From assembly GCA_001821615.1 (NCBI GenBank), contig MHMS01000006.1, positions 1 through 56,538 of the forward strand: a stretch of 56,538 nucleotides of DNA, written 5' to 3'. The stretch comes from Candidatus Niyogibacteria bacterium RIFCSPLOWO2_12_FULL_41_13. GTDB taxonomy: Bacteria; Patescibacteriota; Minisyncoccia; 2-12-FULL-41-13. The notes under the pieces were generated by a model. That model was not told where the DNA came from and did no database searches. It saw only the letters and a program-made list of their open reading frames with translations. This document shows, one piece after another, positions 19,585 through 32,876 of this stretch. The first letter of the stretch is position 1, and the number at the start of each line of letters is the position of its first letter. Position numbers and translations under genes: made by a program.

Positions 19585-20874
19585 TTATTGAATTTTAACA
19601 GTTCCTTTCACTGGACGTCTAGTAATATCAGGTGAAACTCCGGCTTTTAATGCGGTTATAACGCCAGCGGCTTCCAGGTAATTATCCACGAAAAATACTT
19701 TATCATTTTTGAATGGAAGTTTTCGTAAGTCATTCTGCATCAGATTTTTATTTCCCCTTACAACAATCAGCGGAATATTGTTTTCTAAACATGCAAGCGT
19801 AGGCAAGCCAATACAACCATCGGGAATAACAACACAAGATACGTCCTCAAGGGTTATGCCATGATTTGACCCAACAATTCGAGGTGAACGGAACAACCCT
19901 TTTAGTACGCTATGCAAGTAGGTTGTGGAAGCAGATTCCGGTGCTTTTCTGGGGTCGACAACGCCTAACTCCAATTCCATAATTTCGCTTGAAGTCATCA
20001 TCGGAGAGTGAGCGCAGGGAATCTTGTATATTTCCGCAATACTATGAGTTAGCATCGCTTCTATGCCACCCCACGGGTTTATCATTTCGTCGGTTGAGAA
20101 ATACTTTTTGTGGTAGTCATCAGGCACTTTTATAAAAGTTGATAAACCGATAGCATCATAATTGTCTTTGAATTTCTCAATTACCGAAAAAAGATTTTCT
20201 AAACCACTTACTTCACCAATAGCTCGTCCAGATTGCGCATACTTTGAGATGCTTGTTATCAGATTCTCCATTTCATATACGTCGCAATCCATACCTAAGG
20301 TAATCCTGGCCGCCGATACCGCATTTATTATTTCTTCGTTGAAGAAACTTTCTGGGTGTTTATCCATCAGCATTAACACCCGGTTTGATCTGACCTTCTG
20401 CAACCCTATCTGACCAAGCAGTAACTTTGATAAAACGCTCCCTTCAACATACTGTGTGTTGTCTAGCATTTCGTTGATGTCCGCCGCATTAACTACATTT
20501 GGATGCGTTATGAGAATGTCGCTTGCCGCACCGATAAGCCGGGCAACTGAATTTCCATCGCCACAATGGCCTCCAATTTCTGCCCCGATACCCGTCGGGA
20601 TGAGAAGGACTGTGGTAAATTTATTGGTGTTTTCGTATTCCCGCTTCCTAAAATCAAAAACATTTCCTGCTAACGCAGTATATTTTTCCCCGGAAACGAT
20701 TGCGTCAATTTCACAATAATATCCTTGCTCATCAGATTTTGGGACGACAAATCTTACTATCCGATGAGGAATCTCTTTAGACAGAGTAGTCGCGTAATAA
20801 TGTTTCAAACTGGACAAATTTACTAAATCCAGTTTTTCTTTTGGGATGAATTGCTCAAAAGTTATTATTTTCAT
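19585..20874 (-). CDS. conserved uncharacterised protein (PTGIGAEIGGHCGDGN motif; possibly DUF3326-like)
   Basis: 429-aa ORF. LLIPTGIGAEIGGHCGDGNSVARLIGAASDILITHPNVVNAAD is reminiscent, from memory only, of DUF3326 proteins. ATGA overlap with the upstream gene. Confidence 0.5.
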   Translation of the reverse strand: MKIITFEQFIPKEKLDLVNLSSLKHYYATTLSKEIPHRIVRFVVPKSDEQGYYCEIDAIVSGEKYTALAGNVFDFRKREYENTNKFTTVLLIPTGIGAEIGGHCGDGNSVARLIGAASDILITHPNVVNAADINEMLDNTQYVEGSVLSKLLLGQIGLQKVRSNRVLMLMDKHPESFFNEEIINAVSAARITLGMDCDVYEMENLITSISKYAQSGRAIGEVSGLENLFSVIEKFKDNYDAIGLSTFIKVPDDYHKKYFSTDEMINPWGGIEAMLTHSIAEIYKIPCAHSPMMTSSEIMELELGVVDPRKAPESASTTYLHSVLKGLFRSPRIVGSNHGITLEDVSCVVIPDGCIGLPTLACLENNIPLIVVRGNKNLMQNDLRKLPFKNDKVFFVDNYLEAAGVITALKAGVSPDITRRPVKGTVKIQ

Positions 20875-21779: not shown

Positions 21780-22619
21780 TTACAATTTTCCCTCCTCTAG
21801 CTTTTCTGGAGGCGGCTCAATTCCGAGAAATTCCCGATAGATTCGATTTTTATATTCCGTCCCGATTTCATTTACCGCCTCTATAAATGCTTTGTATGTT
21901 CCAAGTCCACCAATCTTTTCCCAAAATTCGTCTCCGATTAAAACCACTTCGTCATTTTTCATATCAAACCACCGAGCTGAGAAAGCCCATGAGTAATTTT
22001 CCCGTTTTCCAAAAGGATTATATGGAAGCGCATAAAAAGCATCATCAACTTGTAGTGGCTCCATACAATAGAGTTTGAGCATTTTCTCTTTACTTACTTT
22101 CGTTTGATCGCTATTCGGCAATGGTGCTTTCAACTCAAAAGCATATTTCTTTTTATTTTTCCTATCCTCTGCATATACATCAGAAATAACCGTAACAGGA
22201 ATAAATTTTGTATTCTTACCTTCTAAAATGTATTCCAGTTCTTTGTCCCAATCTGGCTTAATCCGTTTCTTGTCCTTTACTCCATGTTCGAGATTATTCA
22301 GCACTTCTTGAATCCTGCGCAACCTTTCCGCATTTACTTTGCCTGTTATCGTGCGTCCCTTTTCTCCATATCCAAGACCCTTGTTTGCCGCCACTATTGC
22401 GAGTTTTTCCCAAACGCCGCCAAATGGTGTAACAAAGCGACGCTCAAAATGAGAGCCCTTAAATATCTCATCTGGCACTAAAGCGGCGTAAAGCGGCTTC
22501 TTGGCTCTATGCTCTTCTTTCATAAAAGGTTCTTCAACCAAAACTTTATTCATGACCCTATCCATCATCATTTTGATGACAGATTGGATTGCTTTTTTCA
22601 TTTCTTGTTTCTCGGTCAT
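21780..22619 (-). CDS. type II restriction endonuclease (TdeIII-like, PD-(D/E)XK)
   Basis: ORF adjacent to the methyltransferase. D...FELK catalytic-like motif (ISDVYAED...YAFELKAP). The ATG at 22617-22619 forms an ATGA overlap with the MTase stop. The track start at 22631 is a TTG. Confidence 0.6.
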   Translation of the reverse strand: MTEKQEMKKAIQSVIKMMMDRVMNKVLVEEPFMKEEHRAKKPLYAALVPDEIFKGSHFERRFVTPFGGVWEKLAIVAANKGLGYGEKGRTITGKVNAERLRRIQEVLNNLEHGVKDKKRIKPDWDKELEYILEGKNTKFIPVTVISDVYAEDRKNKKKYAFELKAPLPNSDQTKVSKEKMLKLYCMEPLQVDDAFYALPYNPFGKRENYSWAFSARWFDMKNDEVVLIGDEFWEKIGGLGTYKAFIEAVNEIGTEYKNRIYREFLGIEPPPEKLEEGKL

Positions 22620-23809
22620 ATTTTTTGCCAAATTAAAATACTTTCATAAAATGCACCTTCACGTCGTCCGGTTCGGCGGTTCACATGACGCTCAACCCTG
22701 CCAATTTCCTTAAAACCAGCGACTTCGGGCTTGTATAGCTTGTATTTATCATTTACCACAATGAGCGCGAGCGCATTTTTCGCCATATAATCTCGCGTGT
22801 GTAGCAAAACATCGTTTATCCCCTTGATGTAATCGCTCTTTGCTTGCTGTGATTGTCCATTCTTTGCTGGACCAATTTCTCGTATCTCATTGTTCTTTAG
22901 CCCCAATAATTCATAGGCATATTTATGCTGTTCGTGGTAATCAATTAACCCAATGTATGGGGGGGAGGTAAAAACCATATCAATACCTTTCGGCAATTCA
23001 ACTTCGCGAGAATCCCCGTGATTTACCACAACTTTAGCTTTTGTTTTTATCTTTGAAAATTCCTTTATGCGATCTAATGTATCAATCGTGTAACGCGATA
23101 AGAATTTATATGCTTCCTCCACCGGCTGACATGTTCGTTGGTGCTTATAACATTGATACGGTTTTGTCTGCGGCTCTTTAGGAAAATCCAAATCGTAATG
23201 CGTAACGAGCCGAGCCGAACGCGCCGAACGAGATAATATAGTTTTTAGTAAATCTTGATAAGTATAATCCTTAATGAGTCGCGAATAACATAAAAGTTCT
23301 TTTTGCGTGTTTGGCGCAAACCATTTTTGTATATATTCATTTTTTGTCGAGAAAAGCCTATTCACTTTTTCATCTTTCGAAAATTTGCTTTTGTAGGTAT
23401 CAAGACGCTTCAAAGTACCGTAAATTTCTTTTTCAAGAAGCGGAATGTCATAATCGGCAGTTTTGACTTTTGAAAGTAAGGCATTAAAAGCAGAAATGTC
23501 CGTGCCGACTGAATCTATACCGAGAGCGTTTGCCTCAACCAAAGTTGTTCCGCTTCCCGCGAACGGATCATAAACAAGGGTTGGTTTATATTTCCGCAAA
23601 AATATCTCTACAAGTTGCGGAATAAATTTGCCGAGGTAGGGATGTAAGCGGTGAACGTGTTTTGTCCGTTGATATTCCGGCAAATCGCGCTCGCGCCAAT
23701 TCAAATTCAAAGCGTCAAGCGGCGTTTCCGGTTTTACACTTGCAAAATCGGTCAGTGGTTGCTGTTTATATTGCCGAGCTATTTTTTGTGCGATTGTATT
23801 GTCGTACAT
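22616..23809 (-). CDS. DNA methyltransferase (N6-A or N4-C, SPPY type)
   Basis: Motif I VYDPFAGSGTT and motif IV FTSPPY about 190 aa later. The start is uncertain: ATG at 23809, 7 nt after the wHTH stop, with the ORF open to 23881. Confidence 0.85.
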   Translation of the reverse strand: MYDNTIAQKIARQYKQQPLTDFASVKPETPLDALNLNWRERDLPEYQRTKHVHRLHPYLGKFIPQLVEIFLRKYKPTLVYDPFAGSGTTLVEANALGIDSVGTDISAFNALLSKVKTADYDIPLLEKEIYGTLKRLDTYKSKFSKDEKVNRLFSTKNEYIQKWFAPNTQKELLCYSRLIKDYTYQDLLKTILSRSARSARLVTHYDLDFPKEPQTKPYQCYKHQRTCQPVEEAYKFLSRYTIDTLDRIKEFSKIKTKAKVVVNHGDSREVELPKGIDMVFTSPPYIGLIDYHEQHKYAYELLGLKNNEIREIGPAKNGQSQQAKSDYIKGINDVLLHTRDYMAKNALALIVVNDKYKLYKPEVAGFKEIGRVERHVNRRTGRREGAFYESILIWQKI

Positions 23810-23816
23810 GGATTTA

Positions 23817-24113
23817 TTACTTGGTAAGTTCATTGAGTGCCTGCTCGACACCTTCGAGATTGACCATTGAGTAGTAGGCACGACGACCAGCGCGGGAAGT
23901 GCCTTCTTTTCTCAAAATGCCGAAGCTGACGAGCAAGCGTAGATTTGAAAACCTAAGCCCTTTTTTCTGCACACGCTTAAATACCCACGTCCCGGCAAAA
24001 TCGCCCTTAATCTCTTTCGAGAGATTCAAGCACTCTTGCACTATGGGTAGCCAGTCTGGTCGTTCAACGGCAAGCCGCTTGACGGCCTTGTATCCAGAAA
24101 TTTCCTCGGTCAT
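23817..24113 (-). CDS. small winged-helix DNA-binding protein (putative controller of the operon)
   Basis: 98 aa from the ATG at 24113 (MTEEISGYKAVKRLAVERPDW...). The longer track ORF to 24287 runs into the GC-rich repeat and is discounted. Confidence 0.55.
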   Translation of the reverse strand: MTEEISGYKAVKRLAVERPDWLPIVQECLNLSKEIKGDFAGTWVFKRVQKKGLRFSNLRLLVSFGILRKEGTSRAGRRAYYSMVNLEGVEQALNELTK

Positions 24114-24563: not shown

Positions 24564-25196
24564 TCATGCTTCCTTCGGAATCAGCGAGAACGCGAGTTCC
24601 TCGACTTCAACCATCTGAGCGAGGTTGAGAGCTTGGTTGTAGAGCGACTTGCGGTGTTCCGCAAAGCCCTTGATGACCTTACCAAGCTCTTTCCACATCC
24701 GCTGGGGTTTCTCCTTGGTCTTTGTAGCGATAGCGGGTAGGTCGGTCTCGACAATCTCGACAGTTCTTGCTCTCTCGTAGCCGCGATCCTTGTAACCATT
24801 CTCACCCACGAAACCGATGGTCACGAGAACCCACAGGCCGGAACGCGTGAGTCCCCATACTCGCATTGTTCCGTCTGGACAGTTCACACCGCCAGGAGGT
24901 GGACGATGACCGCTGTTGGGGATTCGCTCCACGGCTGACCACGGCTGTATCCGGAAGATTCCCTGCGTCTTGAGCGAGAACCGCTCGTCTCCGATGGTGG
25001 TTGCGATGTCCAACCGAAGCATGTGTGTGAAGCTGGTTTCACTCCGCATGCATTCGAGCGTGCCGAGTTCGGGAAGCGTGAATGAATCAAGGTGCGGTTT
25101 GATGAGCTCGCGACGGGCCTCGATTAGGCCAAACCACTCCTCATCGATGAGCTGATTCTTACGAACGAACACTTCTAATCCTTTGGTTGAGGGCAT
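24564..25196 (-). CDS. hypothetical protein, compositionally foreign (GC-rich)
   Basis: 211 aa from the ATG at 25196, preceded by GGAGGAGGG. GC content is visibly far above the surroundings. It has its own terminator. No recognisable domain. Confidence 0.6.
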   Translation of the reverse strand: MPSTKGLEVFVRKNQLIDEEWFGLIEARRELIKPHLDSFTLPELGTLECMRSETSFTHMLRLDIATTIGDERFSLKTQGIFRIQPWSAVERIPNSGHRPPPGGVNCPDGTMRVWGLTRSGLWVLVTIGFVGENGYKDRGYERARTVEIVETDLPAIATKTKEKPQRMWKELGKVIKGFAEHRKSLYNQALNLAQMVEVEELAFSLIPKEA

Positions 25197-25458
25197 ACCC
25201 TCCTCCTTTCTGGTTTTGAGAGGCGTACCTCTCGCCAAAAGTATCTTCGCACACGTCTAGTTATTAGTCAATCAAAAACAGAAATTTTTTCAAGTTTCCG
25301 TTTCCAAAATCATTATGCAAAATTTTTCTTTTCCCAAAATGGAAAACCGCCAATTCAAATTTTCGCCCAGAAAACCTTACGATTTGGTCGCCGAGTCCGC
25401 CAAAAGGGCGGATAAACTCCGCGAGGCGACTTCCAAAACCTTGCAATTTTCTAACTGA

Positions 25459-25757
25459 CTCCGCGGGTAGGATTCGAACCTACGACCAAGTGCTTACAAC
25501 TTTCTCATTATTACTAACGAGGTTGGACTATATCTTTACCATACCAAATTTTTAATTCGGATTAGGTATCTCGGTATCTAGTCTCTACGGCGCCCGAGCA
25601 CATAAAGCATTATGTGCTCGGTTCCCACGGTATTACCGAGCACATAACAAGTTTATGTGCTCGGCTTCACCGTTATCCCAAGATGTTCATTCCAAAGTTT
25701 CCTTTGGAAGCTGCAAGTTTTTTACAGGCACCTGCGCTACCGCTGCGCTACCGCGGA
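25459..25757 (-). tRNA. tRNA-Asn(GUU) interrupted by a group I intron in the anticodon loop
   Basis: 5' exon 25724-25757 (TCCGCGGTAGCGCAGCGGTAGCGCAGGTGCCTGT) and 3' exon 25459-25496 (TAAGCACTTGGTCGTAGGTTCGAATCCTACCCGCGGAG). The spliced product is a cloverleaf with U1-A72, G73 and anticodon loop CUGUUAA. Confidence 0.8.
25497..25723 (-). ncRNA. group I (IC3-like) intron, 227 nt, no ORF
   Basis: The 5' exon ends in U, paired as U.G in P1 (CUGU/GCAG). The intron ends in G. The core GUAGAGACUAGA is identical to the Azoarcus/Anabaena tRNA intron core as recalled from memory. There is a P9-like hairpin CUCGUUA-GUAA-UAAUGAG. Confidence 0.75.
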
Positions 25758-25863
25758 ATATTTTCCTATATTCAACTTAAATCAAATTTAATTTTTGGTC
25801 AAGTTTTTAAATTGACTTTTGAATTTTGACTTGTAATTTTGCCTTTTGCCTTTTGATTTTTTA

Positions 25864-27093
25864 TCAATATCCTTCAAGGCGATACGCCAGCTTGTGCTTT
25901 TTTATTTTTTCCAGCGCCTTCATTTCAATTTGCCGGATTCTTTCACGGGTTACGCCGAATTCTTTGCCGACTTCTTCCAAAGTGTAAGACACGCCGTCTT
26001 CCAAACCGAATCTCATCGCCAAAATTTTCTGCTCTCGGGGCGCGAGCTCGGAAATGATTTCTTTTATCTGGTCGCGCAAAAATTTGAGGCTTGTCGCTTG
26101 TTCGGGAGAAAGAGTTTTCTCGTCGGGCACGAATTCCCGAATCGTCACTTCTTCTTTTTCTTCCGGTTCTCCCACGGGCGTTTCCAAAGAAATAGTGTCT
26201 TGCGAAATTTTCTGCAGATGGCGGACTTTTTCAACCGGCAAATTCATTTCAGCCGCGATTTCCTGAATAAACGGGTCGCGGCCGAGTTCTTGCGTCAATC
26301 TCCTGACCGCTTGCTGGTATTTGCTTAAAATTTCAACAATATGAACCGGTAGCCGTATGATTTTTCCCTGGTCGGCCAACGCTCTGGTGATTGCCTGGCG
26401 TATCCACCAGGTGGCATAGGTTGAAAATTTAAAACCCCTTCTCCAGTCAAATTTTTCAACCGCCCGGAAAAGCCCCAGATTTCCTTCTTGAATCAAATCA
26501 AGCATAGTCAGATTGGAACTGCGTCCGAGATAACGTTTGGCGATTGAAACTACGAGTCGCAGATTCGCCAAAATCAGCTTGTTTTTCGCTTCTTCATCTC
26601 CTTGTTCAATCCTTTTTGATAAATCTTTTTCTTCCTGAAAAGTAAGAAGTTTAATTTTGCCGATTTCCCGCAAGTAGGATTGAATGGAATCCATGGAGAG
26701 ATGCTCCATAACATGTTCGGGTTCGGCGCTCGCGCCTGATTTTTTCTTTTCTTTTTCAAGTTCAAAGGGGCTTTTTTCTTCTATAATTTCAATATTAGAG
26801 CCCCTTATTTTTTCAAATGTTTCTTCCAAAAATAAAATATCTTCTTCAATGTTCGGAAAGTAAGTTAAAATTTCGCCGTGGGTCACAAATCCCTTTGCCC
26901 TGCCCTTTTTTATAAGCTCTTTCAATTTTTCTTCTTTTTTGCCGGCTTTCAGCGTTTTTTCGGCGACTGTTTCCAACTTGACCTTTTTTGGCCTTCCTCT
27001 TTTTTTGCCCGCCTGCCGGTAGGCATTGCCCGCCTGAATTTTTTTTGAAATTTTGGCGGATGCGGATGATTTTTTCGGTCTTCCTCTTTTCAT
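25864..27093 (-). CDS. rpoD: RNA polymerase sigma-70 factor with AT-hook-like N-terminus
   Basis: Regions 2-4 are conserved ([48 protein letters not shown]). Confidence 0.93.
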
Positions 27094-27251: not shown

Positions 27252-29000
27252 CTAAACATTAAGTTCTTTGCTTAATTTATGAAACTCGTCAAGGCATTTT
27301 TTGATATTTTCGCCGTCTCCGGCTATTTCGCATTCGCGTATTTTTTGGCTCAACGACAAAAGTTCGTCCTTTAAATATTCCCGCTTCAATTCCATCGCCA
27401 GTTTATTCAACTCTTCCTCGGGCTTGTCCAGATTGCTGTAATAAAGTTCGGCTTCCAGGGCTAATTTATTAAGATAGTGCTCCGAAGCGATTTCAGTCCC
27501 GCTATTCAACGCTTTTTCAAGTATGAATTTTCTTGCCGGAGAAAAATAATTTTGCCAATCTTTATTAAAAAAAGCGGCAAGTTCTTTTTTCCAAAGTAAA
27601 ATTCCGATTAATTTTTCTTCAAGCAAATCGCGGCGGGAAACGGAAGACGGCTTGCGGCTATTTTCGGTTTCAACGCTTTCCGCGCTATCGCTATTCCCTC
27701 TTTTTAATTTTTTTGAATATTTGGCGAGACTTTGCCAAACCGCTTCTTCTTTTAAACTCAAAAAAACAGCCACTTCTTTGAGCCAATGCGCTTGTTCAAT
27801 ATTGCTTGCGATATTCGCGATGTAAGGAATAATGACTCTTTCGGTTTCTTTCGCGAGTTCTCTTTTTTCTTTAACTTTTTCGCTTAAAAAATCCAGATAA
27901 TATCTTATAATCGGTTTCGCCCGCTTGATGGCGAGAAGCCAAGTTTCGGGATTTTCTTTTATTATATCAGCCGGGTCGTCTTTGTCAATCGGGAGAATCT
28001 TGACATCAAAATTATTTTTTAGAGCCAAGTCCACTCCCCTTTTAGTTGCCGCGATTCCTCCGGCGTCCGGGTCAAGAGCAATGTATAAATTGGGCGAGAG
28101 CCGTTTTAATTTAGCTAATTGGTCTTCGGTCAAAGCCGTCCCCGAAACCGCGACTGTGTTTAAAAATCCCGCCTGGTGCGACATAATGACATCCATCTGC
28201 CCTTCAACCAAAACGCAAAAATTGTTTTTTCTGATTTCGTTTTTTGCGAAATTCAAGCCGTAAAGCGCTTTTGATTTATCGTACAAAAGAGTGTTCGGGG
28301 TATTGATGTATTTTGCCGGTTTTTCTTCCTCTTTTAAATCCTTTCTCAAATCTTTTTCAAAAATTCGTCCGGAAAAACCGATTGTTTCGCCAAGCTGATT
28401 GAAAATTGGAAACATTATTCTGGCGCGGAACCGGTCGTAATAAGAAACGCTTCCCGCTTCTTCTTTTTTCACGACGAGCCCCGAATTTTCAATTTCTTCT
28501 TTTGAAAATCCGCCCTGCGAAAGAAATTCATAAATTTCGTCCCAGTTCGGCATAGCGTACCCTATCTCAAAAGTTTCAATTGTTTTGTCTTTCAATCCCC
28601 GCTCTTTCAGATACTCTTTGACATCCGAGCGCCGTTTAAAATTTTCTTTGTAGAATTCTTTGGCTTTGTTGAGAATTTCCGAAAGCCGGGTTTTTTGAGC
28701 GGCCAATTTTTCATCAACTTTCTGAAGCTTCACGCCGGTCATTTTCGCCAAAATTCTAAGCGATTCCGGAAACTCAACTTTTTCCATTTCCATCACGAAT
28801 CGGAAATGGTCGCCTCCGCGAGAACATCCGAAACAATGCCAAATCTGGCGTCCCGGCGAAACATAAAACGACGGAGTTTTTTCTTTGTGGAACGGACAGA
28901 CGGATTTGAAATTCACTCCGGCTTTGTCCAGTTTGATGTAAGACTGGATTAAATCAATAATATCCAGTTTTTCTTTGATTTGTTCAATTGGAGAGAGCAT
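27252..29000 (-). CDS. dnaG: DNA primase
   Basis: Zinc-finger CPFHKEKTPSF...HCFGCSRGGD and a TOPRIM region. Confidence 0.92.
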   Translation of the reverse strand: MLSPIEQIKEKLDIIDLIQSYIKLDKAGVNFKSVCPFHKEKTPSFYVSPGRQIWHCFGCSRGGDHFRFVMEMEKVEFPESLRILAKMTGVKLQKVDEKLAAQKTRLSEILNKAKEFYKENFKRRSDVKEYLKERGLKDKTIETFEIGYAMPNWDEIYEFLSQGGFSKEEIENSGLVVKKEEAGSVSYYDRFRARIMFPIFNQLGETIGFSGRIFEKDLRKDLKEEEKPAKYINTPNTLLYDKSKALYGLNFAKNEIRKNNFCVLVEGQMDVIMSHQAGFLNTVAVSGTALTEDQLAKLKRLSPNLYIALDPDAGGIAATKRGVDLALKNNFDVKILPIDKDDPADIIKENPETWLLAIKRAKPIIRYYLDFLSEKVKEKRELAKETERVIIPYIANIASNIEQAHWLKEVAVFLSLKEEAVWQSLAKYSKKLKRGNSDSAESVETENSRKPSSVSRRDLLEEKLIGILLWKKELAAFFNKDWQNYFSPARKFILEKALNSGTEIASEHYLNKLALEAELYYSNLDKPEEELNKLAMELKREYLKDELLSLSQKIRECEIAGDGENIKKCLDEFHKLSKELNV

Positions 29001-32620: not shown

Positions 32621-32789
32621 AAATGTTTATTAATAAACGCTCTGCCAAAACCTGATTTCAAATATTTTTCAAATTTAAAAGCTCTTAGCGAAGCTCGCCT
32701 TCGCGAAGCTTCTTGACGGACTGCATCACGCCGAAGCCGAGCCGATTCCCGCCTTTGTTTTGCGGAGCAAAACTTCGGCGAGGCGAAGG

Positions 32790-32876
32790 CGGAAGGGGTG
32801 GGATTTGAACCCACGAAAGGATTTCTCCTTTACGGCTTTTCCAAAGCCGCGCACTAGACCGCTATGCGACCCTTCC
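32790..32876 (-). tRNA. tRNA-Ser(GGA)
   Basis: GGAAGGG acceptor, 3-bp D stem, anticodon loop UUGGAAA, long variable arm, GTGGG-TTCAAAT-CCCAC T arm, discriminator G. Confidence 0.88.

Follow-up and report, generated by a model that had tools for sequence, protein, structure and literature searches.

The analysed stretch, called the window here, comprises 56,538 nt of contig MHMS01000006.1. Its minus strand carries, at 25459-25757, a tRNA-Asn(GUU) gene that is split between anticodon positions 35 and 36 by a group I intron (Table 1). An earlier note on this DNA, made from the letters alone, had described two half-tRNAs lying 227 nt apart on the minus strand, and both were found exactly there. 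When ...GGTGCCTGT is joined to TAAGCACT..., a 72-nt cloverleaf is formed. ARAGORN, run on the spliced sequence, returned it as tRNA-Asn(gtt), with the anticodon stem GGUGC/GCACU and the predicted loop CUGUUAA. The spliced tRNA has the anticodon GUU, U1-A72, G73 and a variable loop of 5 nt, which are all the features expected of a bacterial tRNA-Asn; U1-A72 and G73 are established identity elements for asparagine. CCA is not encoded after G73 of the 3' exon, where the next letters are TCA. In the raw window, the unspliced locus is invisible to both ARAGORN and the Rfam tRNA model, and the single ARAGORN call is a tRNA-Ser(GGA) at 32788-32876.

A split between U35 and U36 is the sole junction at which the 5' exon ends in a U paired to G, the intron ends in G and the anticodon loop has 7 nt. 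The pairing of this U with the internal guide GCAG as a U.G wobble, and the G at the end of the intron, are present as the earlier note had read them. Other junctions near the exon ends were enumerated with ARAGORN, and many artificial joins were accepted as tRNA-Tyr, tRNA-Leu or other tRNAs. They were discarded on three grounds: the group I rules (U ahead of the splice site, G as the last intron base), the loop of 7 nt and the shortness of the variable arm.

The Rfam covariance model Intron_gpI (RF00028) matches the insert significantly and over its full length (model positions 1-253 of 253; window 25733-25504, minus strand), with 59.9 bits against a gathering score of 50 and E = 9.8e-13. The minimum free energy (MFE) fold has -94.8 kcal/mol, whereas shuffled sequences give -54.7 ± 4.4 kcal/mol (z = -9.06), and, computed without constraints, it recovers P1, P2, P3, P4, P5, P6, P8 and P9 together with the exon-exon anticodon stem. 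The group I interpretation is thus backed by the Rfam model, the thermodynamic fold, covariation and at least 92 other genes with an intron at the same site. The helix map in Table 1 was drawn from the Rfam alignment, the unconstrained MFE fold and comparative data. It contains the core string GUAGAGACUAGA and, as P9, the GNRA-capped hairpin near the 3' end, both of which had been noticed before. P2.1, P5abc, P7.1/P7.2 and P9.1 are missing from the fold, and P9 is a single hairpin. This layout is compatible with the compact kind of bacterial tRNA introns, that is, an IC3-like architecture. The GUAGAGACUAGA core is presumably shared with the Azoarcus tRNA-Ile and cyanobacterial tRNA-Leu IC3 introns. 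No open reading frame (ORF) of 60 aa or more lies on the sense strand of the intron, so the claim that it is ORF-less stands; the one mechanical ORF there (25614-25829, plus strand) is antisense.

Table 1. Parts of the split tRNA-Asn gene, neighbouring genes, and family loci listed by class
Feature	Position	Strand	Basis or remark
5' exon, tRNA-Asn(GUU) positions 1-35, 34 nt, TCCGCGGTAGCGCAGCGGTAGCGCAGGTGCCTGT, end ...CUGU (U35)	25757-25724	-	sequence; ARAGORN on spliced product
Group I intron, 227 nt, ORF-less, type A of the tRNA-Asn family	25723-25497	-	Rfam RF00028, MFE, covariation
P1: exon CUGU + intron AA (25727-25722) with UUGCAG (25716-25711); U35.G wobble at 5' splice site; loop AAAAC	25711-25727	-	
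Internal guide GCAG	25714-25711	-	invariant, alignments A2 and A3
P2: 8-bp hairpin, GAAA tetraloop (L2, 25701-25698)	25690-25709	-	MFE, covariation
P3: 5' strand AUCUUGG, partner CCGAGAU	25684-25678 with 25574-25568	-	Rfam alignment, MFE, covariation
P4: ACGGUG with UACCGU, enclosing J4/5 and P5	25673-25668 with 25632-25627	-	100% paired in 22 sequences
P5: hairpin, 12-bp stem CCGAGCACAUAA/UUAUGUGCUCGG	25664-25636	-	MFE; basal pairs covary
P6 (GG/CC) and P6a hairpin (25621-25594), 12-bp stem identical to that of P5	25626-25589	-	Rfam, MFE
J6/7 and P7 5' strand, GUAGAGACUAGA	25588-25577	-	sequence
P7: G(A)GACUA with UAGUCC, bulged A	25585-25579 with 25530-25525	-	100% paired
P8, with CCUAAU...UAUGG motif close to the 11-nt GAAA-tetraloop receptor	25566-25539	-	MFE; pairs conserved
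J8/7 and P7 3' strand, GAUAUAGUCC	25525-25534	-	agrees with Rfam consensus AAGAUAUAGUC
P9: 7-bp hairpin, GUAA (GNRA) loop	25521-25504	-	MFE, covariation
P9.0, possible 2-3-bp helix AAC/GUU	25524-25522 with 25500-25498	-	
Omega-G, terminal guanosine, 3' splice site	25497	-	last intron base G in 93/93 listed family members
3' exon, U36 to G73, 38 nt, TAAGCACTTGGTCGTAGGTTCGAATCCTACCCGCGGAG	25496-25459	-	sequence; ARAGORN
rpoD (sigma-70), 106 nt upstream of the tRNA gene, same strand	25864-27093	-	Pfam
dnaG, upstream of rpoD	27252-29000	-	Pfam
Type A introns below the RF00028 gathering score	L084, L086, L088, L091, L099, L115, L119, L127, L128, L139, L155, L163, L177, L185		
ORF-bearing family loci	L089, L090, L100, L105, L136, L137, L140-L142, L145, L150, L151, L158, L159, L169, L174, L184, L187, L189, L193, L195, L196, L199		

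The same split recurs in metagenomes. A pattern consisting of the P7 3' strand, 20-50 nt, G|TAA and a T arm was used for the scan and gave at least 120 stretches. The pattern is confined to U35|U36 junctions followed by A37 A38, which are effectively those of tRNA-Asn(GUU) or tRNA-Lys(YUU), and introns of other tRNAs lie outside its scope. At least 93 complete cases were obtained, including the window and the locus L068, and all of them are tRNA-Asn(GUU) genes with the same split; the 35/36 insertion claimed for the window is therefore found in at least 92 further complete genes. In every one of the 93 complete cases listed, the 5' exon ends in CUGU, the intron ends in G, and the spliced tRNA, of which there are 77 distinct versions, has U1-A72, G73 and the anticodon GUU. 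The other loci listed are cut by contig ends, lack a recognisable 5' exon or, in two cases, had a spurious 5'-exon assignment. L068, a Patescibacteria metagenome-assembled genome (MAG) anchored by its RpoD, carries a group I intron of 107.4 bits just downstream of rpoD. It reads ...GGAAGCTGT | intron ending G | TAACTTC..., that is, a tRNA-Asn(GUU) split at 35/36. Uninterrupted tRNA-Asn genes lie downstream of rpoD in L002, L010 and L054, and those of L010 and L054 also have U1-A72 and G73. In L010, a Falkowbacteria MAG, the intron-less tRNA-Asn (L010:5358-5430) has the same sequence as the tRNA that splicing of L183 would give. Thus, intron-plus and intron-minus alleles of one tRNA exist, and this presence/absence polymorphism is consistent with intron gain or loss. 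Judged by these sequences, the window intron is not a singular oddity, and its family appears widespread in Patescibacteria-like metagenome contigs. A distant blastn search of phage genomes with the whole split gene gave no match, and Rfam over 147 kb of family contigs gave no introns besides those in tRNA-Asn. On one intron-bearing metagenome contig, a LOOT RNA (RF03000, 77.7 bits) was observed at L084:1210-1325 on the minus strand.

Introns of the family fall into two length classes, 184-352 nt (66 of the 93 listed) and 463-636 nt (27). By motif, 31 of the 93 are type A and 62 are type B, and each type occurs with and without an ORF. Type A introns, to which that of the window belongs, read ...AGAGACUAG|AUACCGAGA..., and P7 runs directly into P3'. 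In type B introns (e.g., L068, L092 and L118; L068:4342-4400), P7 and P3' are separated by one or two additional hairpins, and loop L2 is mostly GUAA. The nearest relatives of the window intron among the listed family members share only 70-75% identity with it. The presence of two architectures at one site may reflect either independent invasion or divergence in place.

Comparison within the family supports the fold. We aligned 59 introns (alignment A2) and, with MAFFT, 22 short type A introns (alignment A3), mapped the helices of the window onto A3 and counted pairs, with P7 treated as a pseudoknot. A standard pair is formed in 93.4% of the cells, compared with 32-45% when the 3' partners are slid by 1-3 columns. 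Changes on both sides were observed in 24 of the 50 pairs, and none of 500 shuffles reached the observed covariation score. By helix, the double-changed pairs amount to 8/8 in P2, 6/7 in P9, 4/7 in P3, 2/3 at the base of P5, 1/6 in P4, 1/2 at the base of P8 and one in the P1 extension; the varying pair of P4 is AU/UA. P6 is invariant in A3 and hence uninformative. Of 88 unique introns, 89% can pair their first nucleotide with the base that precedes GCAG (GC 42, CG 16, AU 14, GU 5, UG 1). CTGT and GCAG are invariant in both A2 and A3, as is AGAGACTA, in the 5' region of P7, in all 59 introns of A2. All columns without variation in the 22 type A introns, those of P7, J4/5, J6/7 and J8/7 included, have the same letter in the window. 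In type A introns, L2 is GAAA almost always, together with CCUAA[G/A]...UAUGG in P8, and this combination would fit a tetraloop-receptor contact, the receptor role being taken from established knowledge of RNA structure. No consistent link was found among type A introns between the loop type of L9 and a receptor motif in P5. These comparisons indicate that the fold is under selection, and because of this the introns most likely splice.

The hairpins P5 and P6a, which the earlier note had called near-identical, have identical 12-bp stems. Besides their four arms, the window has no exact copy of the stem sequence, and 0.12 matches with at most one mismatch would be expected by chance. In the relative L185, the same stem is present in P6a alone and P5 is ordinary. 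Because of this, the P5 copy looks like a duplication specific to the lineage of the window.

Long introns of the family carry a gene. A conserved sense ORF of 101-132 aa (CxxCGY...HH...CANCHREVH) was found in 23 long introns, about one quarter of the listed copies. The Pfam HNH model gives it 20.9 bits, just under the cut-off of 21.4. A profile built from 17 of the proteins matches residues 472-554, at the C-terminus of the group II maturase reverse transcriptase 6me0, with E = 2.6e-5, and shows a weak match to McrA. The HNH endonuclease domain of 6me0 is known to be located in this C-terminal region. Counted from the start of the intron, the ORF begins after about 30-45 nt and GCAG, the guide, is reached at about nt 314-348, which places the gene in the loop of P1. 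The guide and the 5' strand of P2 (...ACGCAGCUUCC...) also encode the TQLP at the C-terminus of the protein, so the protein and the ribozyme share sequence. The window intron has a P1 loop of 5 nt and no endonuclease ORF, and it is not itself a homing-endonuclease intron. It may be an ORF-less descendant of a mobile family in which other members have a putative HNH homing endonuclease in the P1 loop.

RF00028 detects the two types unequally. Type B introns score 60-107 bits, with the exception of L103, which is below E = 0.01. Of the type A relatives, L123, L143 and L196 alone reach about 50-58 bits; L084, L185 and L088 score 43, 41 and 31 bits, respectively, seven others are not reported at E <= 0.01, and four more are missed at the gathering score (Table 1). 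Type A relatives missed by the model still align well with the window intron. Thus, RF00028 has a sensitivity gap for the type A subfamily. Since tRNA finders are blind to the split gene and RF00028 misses most relatives of type A, routine annotation misses tRNA-Asn in such genomes. An essential tRNA-Asn would then look absent from many Patescibacteria genomes, and inferences on completeness and codon usage would be distorted.

The window is bacterial chromosome as judged by Pfam, with dnaG, rpoD, trmD and others flanking the tRNA gene. Among GTDB species representatives, the closest RpoD proteins belong to MAGs of the Patescibacteria, or Candidate Phyla Radiation (CPR), with 52-61% identity over the best segment. 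Of the 22 listed family loci in which rpoD is visible, 20 have it upstream of the tRNA gene and in the same orientation, and co-transcription of the tRNA gene with dnaG-rpoD is probable. An RpoD protein identical to that of the window is encoded on at least 24 metagenome contigs from several samples, among them aquifer samples such as ERZ28563641 and JGI 3300025311. Six of these places were compared with the window, and five of them have the split gene unchanged. At the sixth place, L204 (L204:3337-3700; window 25757-25594 and beyond), the match extends to the end of the P6a hairpin and is followed by DNA absent from the 56-kb window. Either the assembly is chimeric at the hairpin, or a strain has undergone a genuine rearrangement by which its tRNA gene is destroyed. 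At 25387-25430 on the minus strand, shortly after the tRNA gene, the sequence GTCGCC...TCCGCC CTTTT GGCGGA...GGCGAC forms a nested inverted repeat with no T run after it; it folds no better than its shuffles (z = -1.5) and thus gives no evidence of being a terminator. Directly downstream on the same strand, a 224-aa ORF (24564-25238) has no Pfam match and is called as 210 aa on sister contigs. About 1.6 kb downstream of the tRNA lies a restriction-modification pair (21780-23881, minus strand), in which the gene of a TdeIII-type endonuclease (Pfam E = 2.9e-72) overlaps a DNA methyltransferase gene. A gene for a DUF3326 protein (Pfam E = 2.8e-84) was observed at 19585-20874 on the minus strand.

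In view of the anatomy of the locus, the covariance-model match, the conserved and covarying helices, and a family that keeps to one insertion site, we consider, with a probability of about 0.88, that the element is a functional self-splicing group I intron whose removal gives tRNA-Asn, and that it belongs to a mobile family but lacks the endonuclease. We infer that the gene is expressed and spliced and that it is the sole tRNA-Asn gene of its genome. Following the general group I pathway, the gene would be transcribed, probably with or just after dnaG-rpoD, and the intron would fold into P1-P9. The exon CUGU would pair with the guide GCAG, giving the U35.G wobble, and an external guanosine bound in P7 would attack after U35. 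The terminal G (25497) would then take the G site, and the exons would be ligated into the 72-nt tRNA-Asn, to which CCA would be added after splicing. Because P10 has at most 3 bp, the exons are assumed to be aligned by the anticodon stem rather than by a strong P10. Splicing in Anabaena needs exon pairing in the anticodon stem, according to the title of Zaug et al. 1993 as it stands in the reference list of PMC3984707, and this requirement fits the weak P10 of the window intron.

Several observations weigh against self-splicing as described. No sigma-70-type promoter upstream and no intrinsic terminator on the gene strand were found in 25200-26000, where hits were at shuffle expectation. Between the 3' exon and the guide, a P10 of no more than 3 bp can be formed, and this only by skipping a base. 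Covariation cannot support P7, which never varies, and the 3' strand of P7 was fixed by the search pattern. The duplicated stem, which is unique to the window among the 59 aligned short introns, could let the 5' arm of P5 pair with the 3' arm of P6a. Furthermore, our view covers 56 kb of the genome with one other tRNA gene, and a second tRNA-Asn may lie elsewhere. Such a second, intact gene would do the work if the locus were a pseudogene with a decayed, non-splicing remnant. The lack of a homing endonuclease, the possible misfolding through the copy-specific P5 duplication, the Rfam score only about 10 bits over the cut-off and the contig L204 that breaks off inside the intron would all suit this explanation. 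However, every core column invariant in the 22 type A introns is kept, all helices are intact, both exons form a perfect cloverleaf, and five other samples have the same locus with no or hardly any change, while low Rfam scores characterise type A introns in general and are no sign of decay. CPR genomes usually have single tRNA genes, which also counts against a second copy. We therefore regard a decayed remnant as improbable.

The reduced periphery of the intron might instead mean that it is removed in vivo with the help of a host protein, a chaperone or a maturase-like factor, and not autonomously. Its small size, its weak P10 and the possibly competing P5 and P6a stems could be taken in this sense, and elsewhere the help of proteins in group I splicing is well established (PMC3984707). 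Yet the Azoarcus intron, which is similarly small (205 nt), self-splices robustly (PMC13168695), GAAA in L2, the receptor-like motif in P8 and GNRA in L9 suggest a self-contained tertiary fold, and Pfam shows no candidate cofactor gene linked to the locus in the window; dependence on a protein thus seems quite improbable. Finally, ARAGORN calls many joins made by arbitrary deletions tRNA-Tyr or others, so that one could think of a chance juxtaposition, an assembly artefact or another identity, such as a tRNA-Tyr read from CUGUAAA. This is hardly credible, because U35|U36 alone satisfies the group I rules together with a 7-nt loop, and the same structure is present in independent assemblies and in at least 92 other loci. 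In addition, bacterial tRNA-Tyr is a class II tRNA with a long variable arm, whereas the arm here has 5 nt. A self-splicing intron in a working tRNA-Asn gene remains our preferred explanation.

Group I introns of bacterial tRNAs have been described in Leu(UAA), fMet, Ile(CAU) and Arg(CCU) (PMC8450103; PMC5733544; PMC3984707). tRNA-Asn(GUU) with a 35/36 site is none of the described host and site classes Leu-UAA, fMet-CAU, Ile-CAU and Arg-CCU, so the window intron adds a new tRNA and, within the anticodon, a new site to their range. A 2021 paper mentioned group I introns in CPR tRNAs and noted that complete CPR genomes need intron-containing tRNAs for a full tRNA set; the supplements of that paper do not say which tRNAs had introns (PMC8172020). 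Group I introns in the tRNA genes of Patescibacteria are also the subject of a 2025 preprint, cited in PMC12641178, which may well describe exactly the tRNA-Asn 35/36 site. We found no report of a group I intron in tRNA-Asn in the literature searched, which did not cover this preprint. The earlier note knew of no such intron; as a new host, however, tRNA-Asn is less novel than it had seemed, since CPR tRNA introns have been on record since 2021 (PMC8172020) and the 2025 preprint exists. With a conventional mechanism, an abundant family and uncertain priority, the novelty is modest. It is possible, though we rather doubt it, that the U35|U36 intron of tRNA-Asn(GUU) represents a lineage of group I introns in bacterial tRNAs that has not been described before and is widespread in Patescibacteria, with a new host tRNA and site, two architectures, an HNH protein of about 105 aa in the P1 loop and most type A members missed by Rfam. 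This proposal stays novel only if the 2025 preprint concerns another site or tRNA. The natural population of intron-plus and intron-minus, endonuclease-plus and endonuclease-minus alleles is suited to the study of the cycle of homing and degeneration in reduced genomes, and the type A introns (184-230 nt) are small and natural and bring comparative data that can be used at once in work on ribozyme folding and structure.

Among known systems, the window intron resembles the Azoarcus tRNA-Ile(CAU) intron, which is also compact, ORF-less, of similar size and located in the anticodon loop (PMC13168695). In both, the 5' exon ends in U paired with the G of a short guide, P2, P5, P6, P8 and P9 are single hairpins, P2 and P9 have GNRA loops, and P8 has a receptor-like motif. 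The tetraloop partners of the Azoarcus intron are presumably alike as well. The two introns differ in the host tRNA, Asn(GUU) and not Ile(CAU), in the phylum, Patescibacteria and not Betaproteobacteria, and in the insertion after anticodon position 35 and not 36, the 5' exon of Azoarcus ending in CAU. P5 and P6a of the window share a duplicated 12-bp stem, unlike those of Azoarcus, and self-splicing has been demonstrated there and is predicted from the sequence here.

The tRNA-Asn introns also share the anticodon-loop site and the sporadic presence among relatives with the introns of cyanobacterial and plastid tRNA-Leu(UAA) and of cyanobacterial tRNA-fMet. They differ from these in the tRNA, in the position in the loop (34/35 for Leu) and in the host phylum. 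Among the introns of tRNA-fMet there are some with a gene for a homing endonuclease (PMC5733544; PMC8450103; reference list of PMC3984707). The endonuclease of the tRNA-Asn family is distinct in being an HNH-like protein of about 105 aa, located in the P1 loop and overlapping the guide. Introns are also frequent in the rRNA genes of CPR bacteria (PMC11270868; PMC11809585). These share the host phylum with the tRNA-Asn introns and often encode LAGLIDADG enzymes, whereas the tRNA-Asn family encodes HNH proteins.

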